A stretch of 32,207 bases of DNA from a virus, in UHGV virus genome UHGV-1442421; one strand, written 5' to 3'. Made by a program: the position numbers and the translations under genes. The notes under the pieces were generated by a model that did no database searches, was not told the DNA's origin, and saw only the letters and a list, made by a program, of their open reading frames with translations. Each line of letters begins with the position of its first letter. Position 1 is the first letter of the stretch. Shown piece by piece: positions 13,270 through 25,009 of this stretch.

Positions 13270-13728
13270 TCATCGAAGGCATTGCGTCCTGATGTATTCC
13301 TGCAGGTAGTTAACCTGCGCGGTTATCCTGTCGATTCCACTTCGGAGACGGTAATAATTGAGTTCAGCATCTGCTGTAAGTCTTGGGCTTTCTCCATCGC
13401 CCATGCTGCTGGCTCCGGTCGTTGACTTTGCACAGGTGGCGGCGACTTGCAGGCGCTTACGACCAGCAGAAACATCAGCACGGAGACTTTCGATAGTCGC
13501 GTTAGCATCAGCAAGCTCCTTTGTGTATCTGGCGTCAAGTTCTGCAACATCACGCTGACGCTGCTGCATGTCAGAGATGGTGGCGGTCGCCTGCTTCAGC
13601 TCACTGACTTTTTTATCACGCTGTTCTTTGTAGGCGATGGCATTATCACGGTAATGATTAACAGCCCATGACAGGCAAACGATGATGCAGATAACCAGAG
13701 CGGAGATAATCGCGGTTACTCTGCTCAT
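13270..13728 (-). CDS. Rz: Spanin inner-membrane subunit Rz (152 aa)
   Basis: N-terminal TM segment and coiled-coil; near-identical to lambda Rz as I recall it; start overlaps R stop. Confidence 0.85.
13323..13508 (-). CDS. Rz1: Spanin outer-membrane lipoprotein subunit Rz1, embedded in the Rz +1 frame (61 aa)
   Basis: Internal ATG at 13508 gives a signal peptide ending ...LLVVSAC, then a proline-rich region; embedded arrangement as in lambda. Confidence 0.65.
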
Positions 13729-14201
13729 ACCTCAATCTCTCTGACCGCTCCGCCAGCCTCTTTGAATTTTGCAATCAGGCTGTCAGCCTTATGCTCGAAC
13801 TGACCATAACCAGCGCCCGGCAGTGAAGCCCAGATATTGCTGCAACGGTCGATTGCCTGACGGATATCACCGCGATCAATCATCGGTAAAGCGCCACGCT
13901 CCTTAATCTGCTGCAATGCCACAGCGTCCTGGCTTTTCGGAGAGAAGTCTTTCAGGCCAAGTTGCTTACGGTAGGCATCCCACCAACGGGAAAGAAGCTG
14001 GTAACGTCCGGCTGCTGTTGATTTGAGTTTGGGGTTTAGCGTGACAAGTTTGCGAGGGTGATCGGAGTAATCAGTGAATAGCTCTCCCCCTACAATGACG
14101 TCATAACCATGATTTCTGGTTTTCTGCCGTCCGTTATCAGTTCCCTCTGACCACGCCAGCATATCAAGGAACGCCTTACGTTGATTATTGATTTCCACCA
14201 T
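13725..14201 (-). CDS. R: Endolysin (lambda R-type lytic transglycosylase, 158 aa)
   Basis: Translation recognised as lambda R ([24 protein letters not shown]...); same length. Confidence 0.9.
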
Positions 14202-14508
14202 CTTCTACTCCGGCTTTTTTAGCAGCGAAGCGTTTGATAAGCGAACCAATCGAGTCAGTACCGATGTAGCCGATAAACACGCTCGTTATATAAGCGAGAT
14301 TGCTACTTAGTCCGGCGAAGTCGAGAAGGTCACGAATGAACCAGGCGATAATGGCGCACATCGTTGCGTCGATTACTGTTTTTGTAAACGCACCGCCATT
14401 ATATCTGCCGCGAAGGTACGCCATTGCAAACGCAAGGATTGCCCCGATGCCTTGTTCCTTTGCCGCGAGAATGGCGGCTAACAGGTCATGTTTTTCTGGC
14501 ATCTTCAT
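14185..14508 (-). CDS. S: Holin (lambda S-type, 107 aa, dual-start MKM)
   Basis: Translation recognised as lambda S with the MKM dual-start motif and hydrophobic segments. Confidence 0.9.
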
Positions 14509-15086: not shown

Positions 15087-15710
15087 CTAACGTGTGACCG
15101 CATTCAAAATATTGTCTGCGATTGACTCTTCCTTGTGGCATTGCACCACCAGAGCGTCATACAGCGGCTTAACAGTGCGTGACCAGGTGGGTTGGGTAAG
15201 GTTTGGGATTAGCATCGTTACAGCGCGATATGCGGCGCTTGCTGGCATTCTTGAATAGCCGACACCTTTGCATCTTCCGCACTCTTTCTCAACAACTCTC
15301 CCCCACTGCTCTGTTTTTGCTATATCAACCGCACGACCTGTACCGTGGCAATCTCTGCATCTTGCGCCTGGCGTCGCGGCACTACGGCAATAATCCGCAT
15401 AAGCGAATATTGCGAGCACTTGCAGTACCTTTGCCTTAGTATTTCCTTCGAGCTTTGCCACACCACGGTATTTCCCCGATACCTTGTGTGCAAATTGCAT
15501 CAGATAGTTGATAGCCTTTTGTTTGTCGTTCTGGCTGAGTTCATGCTTGCCGCAGAATGCAGCCATTCCGAATCCGGCTTGTGATTGCGCCATCCCCATA
15601 GCAGCCATCACATCAGTACCGGAAAGAGAGTCAGAAGCCGTAGCCCGTGGTGAGTCGCTCATCATCGGGCTTTTTGGCGAATGAAATTTAGCTACGCTTT
15701 CGAGTCTCAT
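15087..15710 (-). CDS. Q: Late antiterminator Q (lambda type, 207 aa)
   Basis: Translation recognised as lambda Q throughout (MRLESVAKFHSPKSPMMSDSPRATASD...). Confidence 0.9.
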   Translation of the reverse strand: MRLESVAKFHSPKSPMMSDSPRATASDSLSGTDVMAAMGMAQSQAGFGMAAFCGKHELSQNDKQKAINYLMQFAHKVSGKYRGVAKLEGNTKAKVLQVLAIFAYADYCRSAATPGARCRDCHGTGRAVDIAKTEQWGRVVEKECGRCKGVGYSRMPASAAYRAVTMLIPNLTQPTWSRTVKPLYDALVVQCHKEESIADNILNAVTR

Positions 15711-18166: not shown

Positions 18167-19003
18167 TCAGGTTGAACATTCGCAAGGTAATGCGTCGTCA
18201 TCGGCAAACATGTCTATTTGCAGAGCTCGCTCAGCAACTGCTTGCTTAGCAATACTCCAGAATTTTCCAGATGGGACGTGTTCATTTGGCTGAATTCCAA
18301 GTCTTTCCATTTCGGCAAATAACCCCTCCCTTTCCTCCAAATAAACTGCGCCAGCTTCATCCTTGTGAATTGCATATCCGATTTCCTCTTCCGCAGCTTT
18401 CGCCTCATTCCAGATGTCTTTACGAAGCACATAAACGCAGTACCAGTGTTGCCATCCTGCCTTTAAACAGCCAATGCAATTTGCGTGCTTAAATCTCGAA
18501 TAAGCCATTGGGCGGTTAATGCCAATTTCTTCCGTAGAGTGGATTGTTCTTTGCGGCCATAGGGCAATCGGATAGTCAGTTTTATAACCTCGTTCAGCCA
18601 TAACACCCACGCGGCGCTGAACTCGATGCATTTCATTTCTGTCAAATCCGTAGTAGTAGATATTTTCCTTTTGGCTATCATTACGCTCCAGCCACAGATC
18701 AAACGGTCCTGTCTTAAGCCTGTTGGTGCATAGAATTTGACCTGATCCAACTTTCCATGCCCTCGCGTCAAGGCAAACAGATATTGGAGTAGCGTCTTTC
18801 CACCTTTCATGGTTGGCATACGTAACATCTATCCCTAAATAACTTGATATCTCATCCTTAAATCTCTTGATGTCCTCGTCTTCTACTGTGCTACTGATGT
18901 CGTGGTTAAGCAGGATGACATTTTCTCTTCCATATTTTCTGACCACCTCTATCGCGACAATTGCCGAGGAGTGGCCTCCGCTATACAAAACTACGTGCTT
19001 CAT
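18167..19003 (-). CDS. PAPS reductase-like / PP-loop ATP pyrophosphatase family protein (278 aa)
   Basis: N-terminal PP-loop-like motif VVLYSGGHSS; ATG at 19003 with GAGGG 7 nt upstream; occupies the ninC position. Confidence 0.7.
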   Translation of the reverse strand: MKHVVLYSGGHSSAIVAIEVVRKYGRENVILLNHDISSTVEDEDIKRFKDEISSYLGIDVTYANHERWKDATPISVCLDARAWKVGSGQILCTNRLKTGPFDLWLERNDSQKENIYYYGFDRNEMHRVQRRVGVMAERGYKTDYPIALWPQRTIHSTEEIGINRPMAYSRFKHANCIGCLKAGWQHWYCVYVLRKDIWNEAKAAEEEIGYAIHKDEAGAVYLEEREGLFAEMERLGIQPNEHVPSGKFWSIAKQAVAERALQIDMFADDDALPCECST

Positions 19004-19200
19004 GCCCATACCCTCTGTTGATACTTACTCCTACCCTTTGGCTCGCTGGCGTATTCTGGAAGCAACGCGGAAACCACCCATAACCGAGGGTCTGCGCTTA
19101 GCGTTCGTTGAGTTTTTACGTTGCGGGATTGGTAGGCGGTGATTAACTGAGTTGCTTCTTCGTTGGTGAGGTCGTGATGGTGAAACCATGTGAGCTTCAA
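19000..19200 (-). CDS. Doubtful small ORF (66 aa, TTG start only) filling the 195-bp gap between ninB and the PAPS-reductase-like gene
   Basis: ORF track only; no ATG start and no SD identified. Confidence 0.2.
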   Translation of the reverse strand: MKLTWFHHHDLTNEEATQLITAYQSRNVKTQRTLSADPRLWVVSALLPEYASEPKGRSKYQQRVWA

Positions 19201-19607
19201 TCGTACCTCCTGTCAGTGAACCTGACGCTCTGACCGATAGCCCAGGCAGTCGTATACTCTATGAGGCTTGCCATGCGCTTCACACTCATCTGTGCGCTGC
19301 TCTCCCGAATGTTGACGAATTCGCCTTCAAGGCCGCGCAAAACATCAGCTTCCTGCTTTGTTGCCACTGCATGACCGCTAATCAACAAAACCTTCCATTG
19401 TTCTGGTTTTAACCATTTGCCGCACCATTGAACCTGACGAGCGATATCCGCCAGCATCGCGTGAAATTTTGCGTTCTGGTCAAGGTTGCGCTTGTAGTCA
19501 GTAATGCGGATGGTGACTGGCTTGTCTTTATCGAGAGGAGTTGCGAGGATGGCGTTGATTGCGGCTTGCTGTTGTTGCTTAGTTCGGAGGAATATTGTTT
19601 GCTTCAT
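19197..19607 (-). CDS. ninB: NinB / Orf recombination mediator (136 aa)
   Basis: Similar to lambda NinB as I recall it (LDQN, W.GKWL..E.WK motifs); first gene of the nin region after tR2. Confidence 0.75.
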   Translation of the reverse strand: MKQTIFLRTKQQQQAAINAILATPLDKDKPVTIRITDYKRNLDQNAKFHAMLADIARQVQWCGKWLKPEQWKVLLISGHAVATKQEADVLRGLEGEFVNIRESSAQMSVKRMASLIEYTTAWAIGQSVRFTDRRYD

Positions 19608-19941
19608 CGAAATTCTTCTCTTTAATTCCAGCGGCTCTGATAGCTTTCATTACTGCAATTACCGTTTTGTCACGCCCATCCTCATAACCCATCGCATAAG
19701 CACCTTCTTCACCATCTTTCCAAAAGTCGTCATTCGATTCTGGCCAGTCAATATCCAGTTCAATAGCTGCTCGCGATGCCTGCCACGTTTGCCAGTGGCT
19801 TTGAACATCGTCCATCACGTATTGACCACCAATATTACCGCTGCCAATTTCATGGTGATTTTCAGGGTAACGGATAAGGTCTGAAGATTCGCCTCCACGT
19901 CGCAACCAACTTTCTTCAAACTGCTTTCTTGATTCGTCCAT
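19579..19941 (-). CDS. Hypothetical acidic, Trp-rich protein (120 aa)
   Basis: ORF track; GAGGG about 10 nt upstream of ATG at 19941; 3' end overlaps ninB start by 29 nt. Confidence 0.45.
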   Translation of the reverse strand: MDESRKQFEESWLRRGGESSDLIRYPENHHEIGSGNIGGQYVMDDVQSHWQTWQASRAAIELDIDWPESNDDFWKDGEEGAYAMGYEDGRDKTVIAVMKAIRAAGIKEKNFDEANNIPPN

Positions 19942-19958
19942 CGATACTTACCCTCAGT

Positions 19959-20165
19959 TCAACTCACAAAACGCCACGCCATTTTTGCTACAGCGACAGG
20001 CATAACACCGATAATCACCCACAGGAAAATGCTACCGAAAAGCACACCCACCAGGTCTTTACCTTCGCCTACCAACCGGACAAAACTGCTGGCAACAACA
20101 ATGAACGTCGCCACCATCCACATAGCACCGAGAATCCTCAATGCAGAGAAAATTAACTCAGCCAC
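19959..20165 (-). CDS. Small membrane protein with two predicted TM helices (68 aa; GTG start)
   Basis: GTG at 20165 with GGAG 8 nt upstream, directly downstream of the terminator; two hydrophobic stretches. Confidence 0.4.
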   Translation of the reverse strand: MAELIFSALRILGAMWMVATFIVVASSFVRLVGEGKDLVGVLFGSIFLWVIIGVMPVAVAKMAWRFVS

Positions 20166-20180
20166 GATTTACTCTCCCCC

Positions 20181-20212
20181 AAATAAAAAGGCCTGCGATT
20201 ACCAGCAGGCCT
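20181..20212 (-). terminator. Intrinsic terminator, tR2-like, between the replication genes and the nin region
   Basis: Minus-strand hairpin AGGCCTGC-(8 nt loop)-GCAGGCCT followed by TTTTTATTT. Confidence 0.55.
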
Positions 20213-20237
20213 GTTACAAGCTCAGTGATGTAGATGG

Positions 20238-21614
20238 TCATACGTCAGCCCCTTGTGCATATCGTCTGCCACGCGCAGCAGGTGCATTTGATGCTGTGCA
20301 AATCTGTCTGGCTTCATCCTGGTCACATGCAACAAAGTGTCCGTTGCAGAACCGCTGGTAAACCGTACCAAGCGAGCCAAAACGGTTTTTCGTCACGATG
20401 ATTTCAGCAAATGGCGCGGCGCTACTGTTCTCGTCATATACCGCTTCCCGATAGAGCATGATGATTGAGTCTGCGTCCTGTTCAATGCTTCCAGAATCAC
20501 GCAAATCTGCGTTTGTCGGGCGTTTGTTTGGTCGCTTCTCAACATCGCGCGAAAGCTGACTCAGGGAGATAACAGGCGTTTTCAGGTCTTTCGCCATCGC
20601 CTTCAGGCTTCCGGAGATGTGAGCAATTGCGAGGTCGTTGCGGTCTGCTTTCGGCTTCTCAATCAGGCCAAGATAATCCGCCATGATGAGTGACAGGTTT
20701 GGATTTTCCTGTTTGTGCCGTTCTGCGATTGAGCGTATTTCTTCGACCGATAACCGCGAGGCATCGACTACCCATACATCCAAATCTGCAAGCTGACTCA
20801 TGCCGTTAGCAACACGCGCCCAGCCTTCGTCATCCATCGATGCAGGATTTCGCAGCACGCTAACCGACATCCTCCCGGCGTTGGCGATGCTTCGCTCTGC
20901 AATCTGCAATGCGCTCATTTCCATCGAGAAAATCAACACTCCGCGCCGAACGTCAGAACCAGGGATAACGCGGCTTGCAACGCCTTCGGCAATCTTCAGC
21001 GCCAGCTCGGTTTTCCCCATACCAGGACGAGCGGCGATAATCACCAGGTCTTCCGCGTTCATCCCCCCGGTGATAGCGTCAAGTTCTTCGATTCCGGTCT
21101 TCAGGGTATCGGACTCTTCTCCGTTCCTCAGACGCCTGTCAAGCGTGTCAGTGTAGTCAGTAATGATTTCCCCTAACCGTACAGGTTTAACCTCGTCACG
21201 GGGCTTTCTGATGGCTGAAAGACGCTTTACAAGCTCATCCATCGCCTGACTCGATGCGTCGATGGTTCCGCTCTGAATTGGTTCACGCATTTCATCCATG
21301 ATTTCCAGCACCAGACGGCGGTGATAGTTATCCGCGACCATTCTGGCATATCCCTTCAGGTTTGCGGCGCTCGGGCAGTTTTTGCTGGTCATCAGGATTG
21401 ACGTGAAATGCTCCTCTCCGCACGCCTCGGCAACCATCAGCGCGTCGATTAGGTTTCTGTTTCTCGCCTGCTTACGGATAACTTCGAAGGCTTTCCTGTA
21501 GAGCGGAATTGAAAACGCTTCCGGCTCCAGCGTTGCCAGAACGTCACTGGCGGTTGGTGTTAATCCACCAATCAGCAGACCACCGATAACGCTCGCTTCG
21601 ATATCCTGTTTCAT
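20238..21614 (-). CDS. Replicative DNA helicase, DnaB family (P22 gp12-like, 458 aa)
   Basis: Walker [10 protein letters not shown] and DnaB-like C-terminal motifs; ATGA overlap with the O-like gene. Confidence 0.9.
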
Positions 21615-22441
21615 GCAATCCCCCTGTCTGCAAACTTCCCTTCCCGTACTCCCGTTAACGAATCTTCCCTCAGCAGGTAATCAAAATCAGCTGTCCAGCC
21701 CGTGTCGTTGTCTCCGAAGTAAAACGGCTTGGCCTGATGCACAAACGCCCTGACATACGCTCTGAAACCGTCCACGTTTGGCGTTTTCAGTTGCGGGATG
21801 ATTTTCTTCAGGCGACGTTTGCGTTTCTCGTTGACCGCAACAGCGTGCGGCAGTCTGTCGCCGACTTCGGTGTTGTAGGCGTTCAGGAAAGATTCGTAGT
21901 CGATGCGTTCTGCCTTGCGACGTTCAGGTTTAACCTGCCCATCGTCGCCCCCGTTAGGGGGTAAGGGGGTATTTGTATTTATTGTCTTTTGTATATTGTC
22001 TTTTGTGTTTGACTGATTCGGTAAATTGCTTTTTACCGATTTGGTGAAGGTTTGTTTTACCGAATTGGTAAATGTTTTACCGAATCCGTTAACTTTCGTT
22101 TTCCACTCGGAAATGTTTGTATTCATACCAACTTGACGCCCCACCTGAATGAGAACTCCCATTCTGATAAGCTCGTTTTTGGCGGTAGAGCATTTGGTTG
22201 GTGCCATGCCAGTGAGTTCAGCGAACTGTTCGTTTCCGATCCAATCTATTTTTTTGTTGTAACCGTATGTCTTGCGCCACACAGCCATAACAATCAGTAA
22301 CTGATGTAGAGTAAGTCCAGAAAGCATGGCGGCTTCTAACAGTGTGTTTGCAGTCCGAGTGTAGCCATCTTCGAGTTCTGCCACGCGATGCTCCACGACC
22401 TCCAGTTGAGGCCTGTAATCAGCTAACTTAACGACGCCCAT
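21611..22441 (-). CDS. Replication initiator, lambda O N-terminal-domain type (P22 gene 18-like, 276 aa)
   Basis: N-terminus resembles lambda O (LEDGYTR..N.LLEA); central low-complexity region encoded by the iterons; SD AGGAG. Confidence 0.8.
21947..22090. other. Probable origin of replication inside the initiator gene: AT-rich tract plus four iteron copies
   Basis: AT-rich 21969..22010; TTTTACCGAAT-like repeats at 22030, 22054, 22074 and inverted at 22015; palindrome CCCCCGTTAGGGGG at 21947. Confidence 0.55.
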
Positions 22442-22623: not shown

Positions 22624-22902
22624 TCAGGCCTCAAAACTGTTGCCGCAGTCTTGAGGCTTTTCTTTTGTCAGCACCATGGCTACTTTCTTTGCCAGCTCCG
22701 CTAATTCCTCGTCTTCAACACCCCACTCCAGCACAGCCAGAAGCATGGCCATCTTTGGGATAAAGCTGTCTTTCCATCGCGAAATTTGCGATTCATTAAT
22801 CCCTAATGCATCAGCAACCTTTCGCTGACCACGTACAGCAATTCGATTCAGGATGTTGCTTGTAATTGCATTCGCTTTCTTGCTAGTACTTGTAAGTTGC
22901 AT
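22624..22902 (-). CDS. cII: Lysogeny transcriptional activator CII (92 aa from ATG at 22902)
   Basis: HTH and C-terminal region resemble lambda CII (NESQISRWK, LAVLEWGV); upstream TAAGGAAATACTTACATATG as in lambda. Confidence 0.8.
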   Translation of the reverse strand: MQLTSTSKKANAITSNILNRIAVRGQRKVADALGINESQISRWKDSFIPKMAMLLAVLEWGVEDEELAELAKKVAMVLTKEKPQDCGNSFEA

Positions 22903-22981
22903 ATGTAAGTATTTCCTTAGATAACAATTGATTGAATGTATGCAAATAAATGCATACACCATAGATGTGGTTTAATTTGAT

Positions 22982-23013
22982 GCCCTTTTTCAGGGCTGGG
23001 ATGTGTAAGAGCG
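22982..23013 (-). promoter_or_regulatory. nutR (boxA CGCTCTTACAC, boxB GCCCTGAAAAAGGGC)
   Basis: Read on minus strand between cro stop and cII. Confidence 0.65.
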
Positions 23014-24535: not shown

Positions 24536-24566
24536 TGCTCTTAAAAATTAAGCCCTGAAGAAGGGC
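24536..24566 (+). promoter_or_regulatory. nutL (boxA TGCTCTTAA, boxB GCCCTGAAGAAGGGC)
   Basis: Read directly upstream of N; boxB is a perfect stem with GAAGA loop. Confidence 0.7.
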
Positions 24567-24676: not shown

Positions 24677-25009
24677 ATGGATGCACAAACACGCCGCCGC
24701 GAACGTCGCGCAGAGAAACAGGCTCAATGGAAAGCAGCAAATCCCCTGTTGGTTGGGGTAAGCGCAAAACCAGTTAACCGCCCTATTCTCTCGCTGAATC
24801 GCAAACCGAAATCACGAGTAGAAAGCGCACTGAATCCGATAGACCTTACAGTGCTGGCTGAATACCACGAACAGATTGAAAGCAACCTGCAACGTATTGA
24901 ACGCAAGAATCAGCGCACATGGTACAGCAAGCCACGCAGTGAAATGGGTGTGACATGCTCAGGCCGCCAGAAGCGACGCGGAAAATCAATTCCAGCTTAT
25001 TACGATTGA
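24677..25009 (+). CDS. N: Antiterminator N, lambda type (110 aa from ATG at 24677)
   Basis: Arg-rich N-terminus MDAQTRRRERRAEKQAQWKAANPLLVGV recognised as lambda N; SD AGGAGA; ORF-track upstream extension rejected. Confidence 0.9.
   Translation: MDAQTRRRERRAEKQAQWKAANPLLVGVSAKPVNRPILSLNRKPKSRVESALNPIDLTVLAEYHEQIESNLQRIERKNQRTWYSKPRSEMGVTCSGRQKRRGKSIPAYYD

Follow-up and report, generated by a model that had tools for sequence, protein, structure and literature searches.

A lambda-type tR2 terminator, the ninA frame that spans it and a predicted two-helix membrane protein gene at the probable replication/nin joint of a lambdoid prophage

The tR2 terminator of phage lambda, which lies between ren and ninB and is removed by the nin5 deletion, is among the most-used model terminators, and the dependence of its override on N is established lambda genetics. 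In vivo it has an efficiency of about 0.8–0.9 when the upstream stop codon is at least 18–30 bp away, and it is strongly repressed by ribosomes close behind the polymerase when that stop is a few bp away; terminators that lie within 100 bp of the start of an ORF are not subject to repression by ribosomes (Li et al., 2015, PMC4824070). The same study describes the start of the lambda NinA frame as ‘not weak’ and active in vivo, and reports that it halves the output of an upstream reporter via non-stop translation, while NinA translation lowers tR2 efficiency by only about 10%. Lambda ribosome profiling (Liu et al., 2013), to the extent that it is cited in PMC4824070, backs the translation of NinA.

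The locus described here is part of the UHGV virus genome UHGV-1442421; the whole stretch of DNA that was analysed, 32,207 nt, is called the window below. All genes of the locus are on the minus strand. The upstream gene (20238..21614, minus strand) encodes a DnaB-type replicative helicase, the counterpart of P22 gene 12 (Pfam DnaB_C, 9.2e-78; DnaB, 7e-14; phrog_19), and a homologue is named ‘replicative DNA helicase’ in RefSeq. Its TGA stop overlaps the ATG of ninA in an ATGA at 20241..20238. The gene order is cII, O, helicase, tR2, nin genes and Q, and very probably this is the standard joint of replication genes and nin region of a lambdoid prophage, with tR2, ninA and the first nin gene on the early-right transcript. 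A locus with tR2, ninA and the catalogued 68-aa gene is already known and ordinary. For annotation, the site can be cleanly assigned to lambda tR2 and ninA, with a catalogued accessory gene behind them; the prophage combines the N/nut specificity of lambda with a helicase of the P22/HK620 type. A search of the whole window against Rfam at the gathering threshold gave no match, and NinA, the 68-aa protein and the next ORF gave no match in Pfam, NCBIfam or PADLOC.

Terminator scan, folding and conservation all point to the tR2 stem-loop AGGCCTGC/TGGTAATC/GCAGGCCT at 20212..20189 (minus strand). The stem has eight pairs, six of them G-C, and encloses a loop of 8; it is followed by the U-tract TTTTATTT (20188..20181, minus strand; terminator scan and conservation), where release of the RNA is expected. 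The 36-nt tR2 segment folds with -15.7 kcal/mol (z = -4.07) and none of 200 shuffles folded as well. In the window, the 32 nt of hairpin and tail are found a single time, with 0 occurrences expected. The terminator scan of the window lists this site first. As a whole, the scan was not enriched (7 sites vs 4.9 expected); the support for tR2 therefore comes from the site itself and its conservation and not from the scan count. The sequence-only reading had placed a strong, tR2-like intrinsic terminator 26 nt after the helicase stop. The strength is borne out, and the likeness turned out to be orthology (see below). The position just after the helicase stop also stands, with the correction that 25 nt lie between stop and stem and that 26 is the first stem base.

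The tR2 segment is present in 421 phage records. In an alignment of the window with lambda, P22, 21, HK620, HK022, Nil2, SPN9CC and Stx2-86, a 41-nt tR2 core is invariant, and the match to several lambda records, approximately 96% over 70 nt, lies directly after ren. The same site is annotated as tR2 in the records of HK620 and Nil2. The only stem variants seen were G-U wobbles that preserve pairing or changes of the terminal pair. By sequence, the terminator is thus orthologous to lambda tR2, and hairpin, T-run and G-run are identical in the two. At the same place inside ninA, other phages have hairpins with T-runs that are unrelated to it (-11.5 and -13.1 kcal/mol). Loci of the HK022 type have lost the 5' part of ninA but retain hairpin, T-run, ribosome-binding site and GTG.

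Further upstream on the same transcript, nutR (22982..23013, minus strand) is the loading site for N. This segment corresponds to lambda nutR; its boxA CGCTCTTA (23013..23006) was identified by reading the sequence and its boxB GCCCTGAAAAAGGGC (22996..22982) is an exact match, with 0 expected in the window by chance. A lambda-type nutL boxB is also present. The gene at 24677..25009 (plus strand) encodes a lambda-type N antiterminator (MDAQTRRRERRAEKQAQW..., phrog_271, 5.8e-27, and translation), and its product has the arginine-rich motif of lambda N. Since the window has lambda N together with lambda-type nutL and nutR, N-dependent read-through of tR2 is the control to be expected, and it is plausible at this locus.

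The terminator is spanned by ninA, an ORF of 27 codons (20158..20241, minus strand; phrog_5907, 1.1e-18) whose product is identical in 27/27 residues to HK620 NinA (AAK28874). A Shine-Dalgarno-like site, AAGGGG, lies within the 3' end of the helicase gene (20249..20254, minus strand; predicted pairing energy with the anti-Shine-Dalgarno sequence -6.8 kcal/mol), and ninA ends at a TGA (20160..20158) that lies 5 nt beyond the next gene's GTG. PGAP did not call ninA, which is annotated in HK620, HK630, SPN9CC, P22, 21 and Nil2. The overlap of start and stop holds in most loci sampled. Comparison of these loci gave three indications of translation. Seven of seven unrelated upstream gene ends supply a Shine-Dalgarno site for ninA with -5.9 kcal/mol or stronger, against 10.6% for random ATGs in the same loci, a joint chance of about 1.5e-7. 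Minor codon alleles in the ninA frame were synonymous and non-synonymous in a ratio of 17:14, compared to 27% synonymous expected and to 8:22 and 3:25 in the other frames; part of this excess, at codons 5 and 6, stems from the search pattern used, and without codons 1–7 the ratio is 12:13, again vs about 27% synonymous expected. Thirdly, in most of the sampled contexts of downstream genes, only a few nt separate the ninA stop from the start that follows, and every one of the three types of the 68-aa gene has this stop at -5 although the bases differ (GTGGCTGA vs ATGGTTAA). The upstream Shine-Dalgarno sites and the synonymous excess suggest that ninA is translated, which is a modest new point.

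The next gene (19959..20165, minus strand) encodes a predicted membrane protein of 68 aa that belongs to PHROG 1165 (phrog_1165, 3.5e-37, residues 1-68/68). Its GTG start (20165..20163) is preceded, with 6 nt in between, by the ribosome-binding site GGGGGAGAG (20172..20180, minus strand), which is invariant in the nine-phage alignment and has a predicted pairing energy with the anti-Shine-Dalgarno sequence of -8.8 kcal/mol. Any gene that occupies the first place of the nin region shares this site, and the mosaic breakpoint is right after it. A hairpin that would mask the ribosome-binding site (GGGAGAG paired with UUUUCUCU in a 121-nt fold), and that would have made the GTG dependent on ninA translation, was rejected: its z of -0.2 to -1.3 is not better than shuffles, and it is not conserved in HK620-type, SPN9CC-type and lambda contexts.

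The 68-aa protein is identical to HK75 ADO67670 and homologous to HK022 gp58, SPN9CC_0027 and Stx2-86 gp69. The exact protein sequence was found on 291 contigs, and there are 205 homologues, nearly all of 68 aa among the 120 matches listed. RefSeq labels are “hypothetical” or “membrane protein”, and the gene is called by PGAP. Three sequence types occur, with 44–56% identity, all of 68 aa and with the same start position. Values of dN/dS are 0.36, 0.26 and 0.67, and in the two most divergent comparisons pS is approximately twice pN for this frame alone of the three, the third comparison being less clean. Conservation of the ORF in relatives, the lack of which would have refuted the sequence-only reading by its own test, is thus found in PHROG 1165, in the homologues and in dN/dS, and these comparisons identify the ORF as a genuine coding gene. 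Selection on the protein appears only moderate, with dN/dS up to 0.67. The gene is the first one after tR2 in approximately 20% of 112 related viral contigs sampled. As a member of a narrow family from lambdoid phages of enterobacteria, it is an accessory gene that a phage may have or lack. In several other contigs of this sample the slot after tR2 is taken by different small proteins whose N-terminus has a hydrophobic stretch.

Hydropathy, AlphaFold2 and the alignment place a predicted transmembrane helix 1 at about residues 11–29 (20079..20135, minus strand), after the conserved R/K10, and a predicted transmembrane helix 2 at about residues 41–60 (19986..20045, minus strand), followed by a conserved AK(M)AW(R)F tail. 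AlphaFold2 models the protein as a helical hairpin with helices 2–33 and 38–67 (pLDDT 91). Residues K/R10, W16, G35, D37, W49, G53, P56-V57, K61 and W64 are conserved down to 30% identity, and the loop between the helices has the conserved residues G35, D37 and P38. The product is predicted to be a helical-hairpin protein of the inner membrane, N-in/C-in as judged from the charge distribution only, with a predicted short acidic periplasmic loop that contains the conserved G-K-D-P. During lytic growth, its most likely role would be to act on the inner membrane of the host. An HMMER scan of 1.84 billion representatives yielded only 17 distant homologues. One distant relative belongs to a phage-like row of overlapping small genes and gives no functional clue.

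The following mechanism is proposed for the joint. Unmodified RNA polymerase would be stopped by tR2 shortly after the helicase stop, while polymerase modified by N at nutR would pass it, as in lambda and in agreement with the lambda N and nut sites of the window. On the read-through RNA, ribosomes translating ninA would cross and melt the hairpin and terminate at the TGA just past the GTG, and this crossing would keep translation continuous from the helicase gene to the nin genes. The RNA that ends at tR2 would carry ninA without a stop codon, ribosomes would stall on it and the RNA would pass to rescue and decay; such stalling and decay was shown for the lambda sequence and would here follow by analogy. 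The 68-aa gene, as the first gene of the nin region, would start at the GTG behind GGGGGAGAG and the U-tract, and since this start is past tR2 its product is expected to be delayed-early and N-dependent. With its own strong ribosome-binding site, this GTG may initiate independently of ninA termination. The sequence-only reading had already noticed that the T-run leads via a Shine-Dalgarno site to the GTG of a 68-aa protein with two hydrophobic helices, and that the hairpin lies inside a 27-aa ATG frame with coupling to the helicase stop; both are confirmed, by GGGGGAGAG, the GTG and hydropathy and by the identity of the shorter frame as the annotated gene ninA. It further regarded the two frames as competitors, with read-through by N perhaps deciding which product is made. 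Read-through is plausible given lambda N and the boxB of nutL and nutR, but no choice between products is involved: since ninA ends 5 nt beyond the GTG and neither frame is complete on RNA without read-through, they are arranged in series and do not compete.

A further step would be to regard ninA as a selected ‘relay’ micro-ORF, which carries ribosomes across tR2 to whichever next gene has been recombined in on N-antiterminated RNA and which gives stop-less tR2-ended messages that are cleared by tmRNA. NinA itself and the small membrane proteins that recur in the first nin slot might in addition act jointly at the inner membrane. We offer this only tentatively and consider it rather doubtful as a whole; if true, it would make the N-dependent switch from early to delayed-early expression sharper. 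That ninA is instead non-functional, its frame persisting through the conserved terminator and ribosome-binding site beneath it, with independent initiation of the 68-aa gene and an incidental ATGA overlap, is likewise possible without being probable. It would fit with the omission of ninA by PGAP, with the small effect of NinA translation on lambda tR2 (Li et al., 2015) and with the loss of the part upstream of the hairpin in HK022-type loci. In some loci the frame is broken by +1/+2 shifts in the G-run (L092, L015) or by a stop at codon 21 (L197), so the full peptide is not indispensable. The hydrophobicity of NinA could also be a by-product of the GC stem and T-run, which would encode such a composition, but an HK022 variant without the hairpin still encodes a hydrophobic 34-mer. 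A non-functional frame is also hard to reconcile with Shine-Dalgarno sites at all seven unrelated upstream gene ends, with a synonymous excess in the ninA frame only, with the stop/start overlap retained across different downstream genes and with the in vivo activity of the lambda NinA start (Li et al., 2015). Alternatively, ninA could be an attenuator of the leader-peptide type, in which termination at tR2 depends on where the ribosome is on ninA, and translation and not N sets the flow into the nin region. The position of the ORF over the terminator agrees with this, as does the strong repression of tR2 by ribosomes near the polymerase when the stop is a few bp upstream, but in lambda tR2 efficiency shifted by only about 10% when the NinA start was silenced, and such repression does not reach terminators within 100 bp of the start of an ORF (Li et al., 2015). 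Folding of the locus gave the terminator hairpin only and no alternative antiterminator pairing, flanking structures being no better than shuffles and not conserved; NinA has no run of regulatory codons, and the window has a complete lambda N/nut system. The attenuator reading, against which the missing antiterminator pairing and the small effect in lambda both speak, was rejected as highly improbable.

Two further explanations concern the 68-aa gene. Translation could start at an internal ATG (Met15 or Met17, with a product of 52 aa), or the ORF could be non-coding. The short form is annotated in the HK630 record and GTG starts are less common, but the GTG, which is ATG in Salmonella phages, is conserved directly after the invariant ribosome-binding site, residues 1–14 including K/R10 are conserved across the types, and a start at the internal ATG would cut transmembrane helix 1. 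The length of 68 aa, shared by almost every one of the 120 homologues listed out of 205, also argues against the short form, and the pS/pN ratio in the two most divergent comparisons against a non-coding ORF, so that we regard this explanation as extremely improbable. It is improbable, to a lesser degree, that the protein is holin- or antiholin-like or serves superinfection exclusion, with expression from the prophage. Its size and two-helix layout are similar to those of class II holins and of small exclusion proteins, but the protein had no match to holin families in Pfam and PHROG profiles and none to PADLOC models at E ≤ 1, and Foldseek against BFVD returned only generic helical hairpins (best E = 0.7). 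A role as the lysis holin was rejected since the window has a separate lysis cassette after Q at 13270..14508, with holin (14185..14508), endolysin (13725..14201) and Rz (13270..13728). The gene is moreover inside the repressed early-right operon, downstream of tR2. We know of no separate promoter close to it, and therefore expression from a repressed prophage, which exclusion would require, is not expected. The sequence-only reading saw small membrane peptides at this position as candidates for host-toxic or exclusion functions; the Pfam, NCBIfam, PADLOC and fold searches gave no support for such a role.

Compared to known systems, the locus resembles the leader-peptide attenuators pyrBI and trp in having a short ORF over an intrinsic terminator, where a ribosome could affect the hairpin, but it lacks an antiterminator structure and regulatory codons and its control would be by N. 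Pinholin S21-68 and other class II holins are alike in size and architecture (68 aa and two transmembrane helices for S21-68), but there is no sequence or profile relation to the window protein, whose gene is outside the lysis cassette. Members of PHROG 1165 (HK75 ADO67670, HK022 gp58, SPN9CC_0027, Stx2-86 gp69 and mEp213 gp58) occupy the same place directly after tR2, with no notable difference from the window protein; neither Pfam nor NCBIfam has a model for this family. The NinA frames of P22, HK620, 21, L and epsilon34 (PHROG 5907) have the same ATGA start overlap and span tR2. The ninA genes of lambda, 21 and P22 have 26 codons and end in an ATGA with ninB, whereas ninA of the window has 27 codons and ends in GTGGCTGA, with an overlap of 8 nt with the 68-aa gene. 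The rarely annotated ninA frame looks like a conserved translational bridge over a terminator at a mosaic joint. Lambda tR2 itself is identical in the 32-nt hairpin with U-tract and in GGGGGAGAG, and alike in position: it follows the replication genes, heads the nin region and is downstream of a lambda-type nutR. The differences are in the flanks: upstream, lambda has P and ren and the window a DnaB-type helicase as in P22, HK620 and HK97, and downstream, lambda continues with ninB and the window with the 68-aa membrane protein gene.

The hairpin just past the helicase stop has the properties of a strong terminator, as had been proposed from the sequence-only reading. The gene for a DnaB-like helicase (20238..21614, minus strand; Pfam DnaB_C, 9e-78) is followed after 25 nt by a stem-loop, AGGCCTGC-TGGTAATC-GCAGGCCT (20212..20189, minus strand), of 8 pairs, 6 of them G-C, with the tail TTTTATTT (20188..20181, minus strand) directly 3' of the stem. 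The segment folds at -15.7 kcal/mol (z -4.07), and none of 200 shuffled versions was as stable. The site was the first entry in a terminator scan of the window, which overall returned 7 sites against 4.9 expected; since this count is not enriched, the case for a terminator rests on the site itself and on its conservation.

A 91-nt query spanning the hairpin matched 421 phage records, including lambda (~96% over 70 nt, immediately 3' of ren), 21, P22, ES18, HK620, HK022, Nil2, VT2-Sakai and many Stx phages. Alignment of nine sequences (the window, lambda, P22, 21, Nil2, HK620, SPN9CC, HK022 and Stx2-86) showed 41 consecutive invariant bases (AGGCCTGCTGGTAATCGCAGGCCTTTTTATTTGGGGGAGAG), and 'terminator tR2' is annotated at exactly this hairpin in the HK620 and Nil2 records. 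What had been called tR2-like is on these sequence grounds orthologous to lambda tR2, an intrinsic terminator in standard use as a model (e.g., PMC4824070). Among 88 different forms of the segment, stem changes were confined to G-U wobbles that preserve pairing (GGTCTGC, GCGGGCC, GCAGGCT) or to the terminal pair. Some phages that keep the 5' end of ninA, the short frame across the hairpin, carry an unrelated hairpin and T-run at the same position (GGGGCTATTTACACAGTAGCCC, -11.5 kcal/mol; GGGGCCACTTACACAGTGGCC, -13.1 kcal/mol). In HK022-type loci a ~0.66 kb insertion interrupts ninA where the hairpin begins, and the 68-aa gene is still preceded by hairpin, U-tract, ribosome-binding site and GTG as one unbroken block. 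The conserved stem pairing, the substitute hairpins and this retention lend support to selection for termination here.

Five viral contigs (L211, L140, L172, L180 and L168) retain ~31 nt from the 5' end of ninA with tR2 swapped out; in these, the terminator function has been replaced and the sequence not retained. The HK022-type insertion lies in the region 1753..2470 of L004/L090 (HK022), is also found in the loci L056, L216 and L185, and contains the C-terminus of a NinA variant and a 203-aa gene. Another viral contig, L074, has a 16-nt tandem duplication within the tR2 hairpin (…GGCCTGCTGGTAATCGCAGGCCTGCTGGTAATCGCAGGCC…), by which NinA is lengthened to 33 aa.

The 27-aa ATG-initiated frame (20158..20241, minus strand) does overlap the helicase stop in a common ATGA and spans the hairpin, as described earlier, and its TGA falls 5 nt past the GTG of the 68-aa gene. 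It matches phrog_5907 (1e-18) and is identical to HK620 NinA in 27 of 27 residues. ninA is annotated in the HK620, HK630, SPN9CC, P22, 21 and Nil2 records and absent from the PGAP gene calls; in the literature NinA is one of the nin genes listed for P22 and lambda.

Such a frame could be a mere shadow of the conserved terminator, or it could be translated. The same ninA ATG is preceded by seven or more gene ends that are unrelated to each other, including lambda ren, two helicase types and the Stx2-86 89-aa ORF, and all seven examined supply a Shine-Dalgarno, with predicted anti-Shine-Dalgarno pairing of -5.9 to -11.6 kcal/mol. Such scores are reached by only 10.6% of random ATGs from these loci, giving a joint chance of ~1.5e-7. 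In the ninA frame, 17 minor codon alleles are synonymous and 14 non-synonymous, against an expected synonymous share of 27%, and the ratios in the remaining frames are 8:22 and 3:25; codons 5 and 6 are inflated by the search pattern, and with codons 1-7 excluded the ninA ratio becomes 12:13. In most downstream contexts sampled, the ninA stop and the start that follows are only a few nt apart: the stop forms ATGA with the ninB start in lambda, 21 and P22, and sits at -5 in all three 68-aa gene types despite differing bases (GTGGCTGA vs ATGGTTAA). In lambda the NinA start is 'not weak', and translation of stop-less NinA on tR2-ended RNA halves upstream reporter output, which is restored by mutation of the NinA ribosome-binding site or AUG; NinA translation cuts tR2 efficiency by only ~10% (Li et al., 2015; PMC4824070). 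The ribosome-binding sites, synonymous variation, stop/start geometry and lambda experiment favour translation of ninA over a terminator shadow. A few loci have a G-run frameshift in ninA or a stop at codon 21, which would speak against a strict function of the NinA peptide, and the HK022 NinA variant, with no hairpin beneath, is still a hydrophobic 34-mer. In our reading, ninA is translated and serves as a bridge over the terminator.

The U-tract leads into the ribosome-binding site GGGGGAGAG (20180..20172, minus strand), and six nt past it, at 20165, the GTG opens a 68-codon ORF (19959..20165, minus strand) with two hydrophobic segments, in agreement with the earlier description. The product is covered from end to end by its match to phrog_1165 (3.5e-37), has an identical counterpart in HK75 and occurs as the exact sequence on 291 contigs. 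The gene is annotated in HK022 (gp58), SPN9CC, mEp213, Stx2-86 and others, and PGAP labels it 'hypothetical protein' or 'membrane protein'. The family is narrow: a set of 5.8 billion sequences contained 205 homologues, nearly all of the 120 listed being exactly 68 aa; a separate search at 50% clustering gave 17 representatives, and the family was found in 107 of 50,697 phage records and ~20% of 112 viral contigs sampled via the ninA 5' end. Conservation of the ORF in relatives was borne out, as length and start position (GTG or ATG, right after the invariant ribosome-binding site) are the same in three sequence types, that of the window, the HK620 type (56% identity) and a Salmonella type (44% identity). 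Comparisons gave dN/dS of 0.36, 0.26 and 0.67; in the two most divergent, pS is about two-fold above pN in the coding frame and in neither of the others, and the third is less clean. K/R10, W16, G35, D37, W49, G53, P56-V57, K61 and W64 are conserved in relatives down to 30% identity. A 52-aa form annotated in HK630 is unlikely, as it would truncate the first helix and disregards the conserved N-terminus.

AlphaFold2 models the protein as a helical hairpin (helices 2-33 and 38-67, pLDDT 91), and the charge distribution suggests an N-in/C-in topology with a short acidic loop outside. Searches of Pfam, NCBIfam and PADLOC gave no match, and the best hit of a fold search had E = 0.7. A lysis holin was rejected, the holin gene being elsewhere in the window. 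Since the gene lies within the repressed early-right operon, 3' of tR2, expression in the lysogen is not expected, and our guess is that the protein most likely acts on the host inner membrane in the lytic phase.

Variable sequence bounds the conserved segment on both sides, with upstream gene ends diverging right before the ATGA and downstream genes right after GGGGGAGAG, which is the usual lambdoid pattern of a common linker between exchangeable modules. Depending on the phage, the downstream gene is ninB, a phrog_343-type ORF, the gene of the 68-aa protein, that of a 105-aa or 90-aa protein whose N-terminus has a hydrophobic stretch, or another. In other loci (e.g., L193, L201, L126, L141) the slot after tR2 is often taken up by small proteins with such a stretch (MADWQIPIIILAGASLVAGFILL..., 105 aa; MKDLLVTLNVGLSLLGYAYIMF..., 90 aa), and small membrane proteins may be favoured there. 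L008, L010 and L011 (genome_contigs), from metagenome bins labelled Cellvibrionaceae, Bacillota and Collinsella, have this module of enterobacterial phages with 85-97% identity at the protein level, most likely through binning contamination and not true host range.

Unmodified polymerase would stop at tR2, and a ribosome halting at the helicase stop 25 nt upstream would scarcely repress it; at such a stop distance tR2 efficiency is ~0.8-0.9 in the lambda natural-sequence series (PMC4824070). Polymerase modified by N would transcribe past tR2, and ribosomes from the ninA start would then traverse the hairpin and end 5 nt beyond the GTG, the 68-aa gene starting via its strong ribosome-binding site (predicted pairing -8.8 kcal/mol) by re-initiation or independently. 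The two frames thus lie in series, both requiring read-through, and are not in competition as had been suggested. We also tested and rejected the idea that a further hairpin might hide the ribosome-binding site of the 68-aa gene and so enforce coupling. The original observation is confirmed and its interpretation partly supported; tR2, ninA and the catalogued small membrane protein were all annotated before.

The window is a lambdoid prophage. Its minus strand encodes in order cII (22624..22962), an O-like gene, the helicase, ninA/tR2, the 68-aa gene, a phrog_343 ORF, NinB, a NinC-like PAPS-reductase homologue, an Ant/Roi-like gene, HNH, RusA and Q (15087..15710), after which come holin, endolysin and Rz genes. 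Repeats within the O-like gene (22009..22102), three direct copies at ~20-24 nt spacing (TTTTACCGA...) with matching inverted copies, are most likely origin iterons. The 120-aa phrog_343 ORF (19579..19941, minus strand) has a 29-nt overlap with the start of NinB; the C-terminal two-thirds match Nil2 ORF29-type proteins, which elsewhere lie directly 3' of tR2, and the N-terminus is different, so that the gene is itself mosaic. The PAPS-reductase-like protein of the nin region (280 aa, phrog_424; 18167..19009, minus strand) is the counterpart of lambda NinC; the lambda nin genes are dispensable. On the plus strand are a 210-aa cI-like repressor, the N gene (24677..25009; product MDAQTRRRERRAEKQAQW...) and the nutL boxB GCCCTGAAGAAGGGC (24552..24566), and nutR follows cro on the minus strand (23013..22982; boxA CGCTCTTA, boxB GCCCTGAAAAAGGGC). 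N, with its arginine-rich motif, and nutR we take to be those of lambda, as recognised from the known lambda sequence. Since N, nutL and nutR are present, tR2 is expected, by homology, to be controlled as it is in lambda, through N-dependent read-through. N, the nutL boxB and the nutR boxA and boxB, all lambda-type, are combined with a different, 210-aa repressor and a helicase of P22/HK620 type; the prophage is a mosaic in which antitermination has the specificity of lambda and the immunity and replication modules do not come from lambda.
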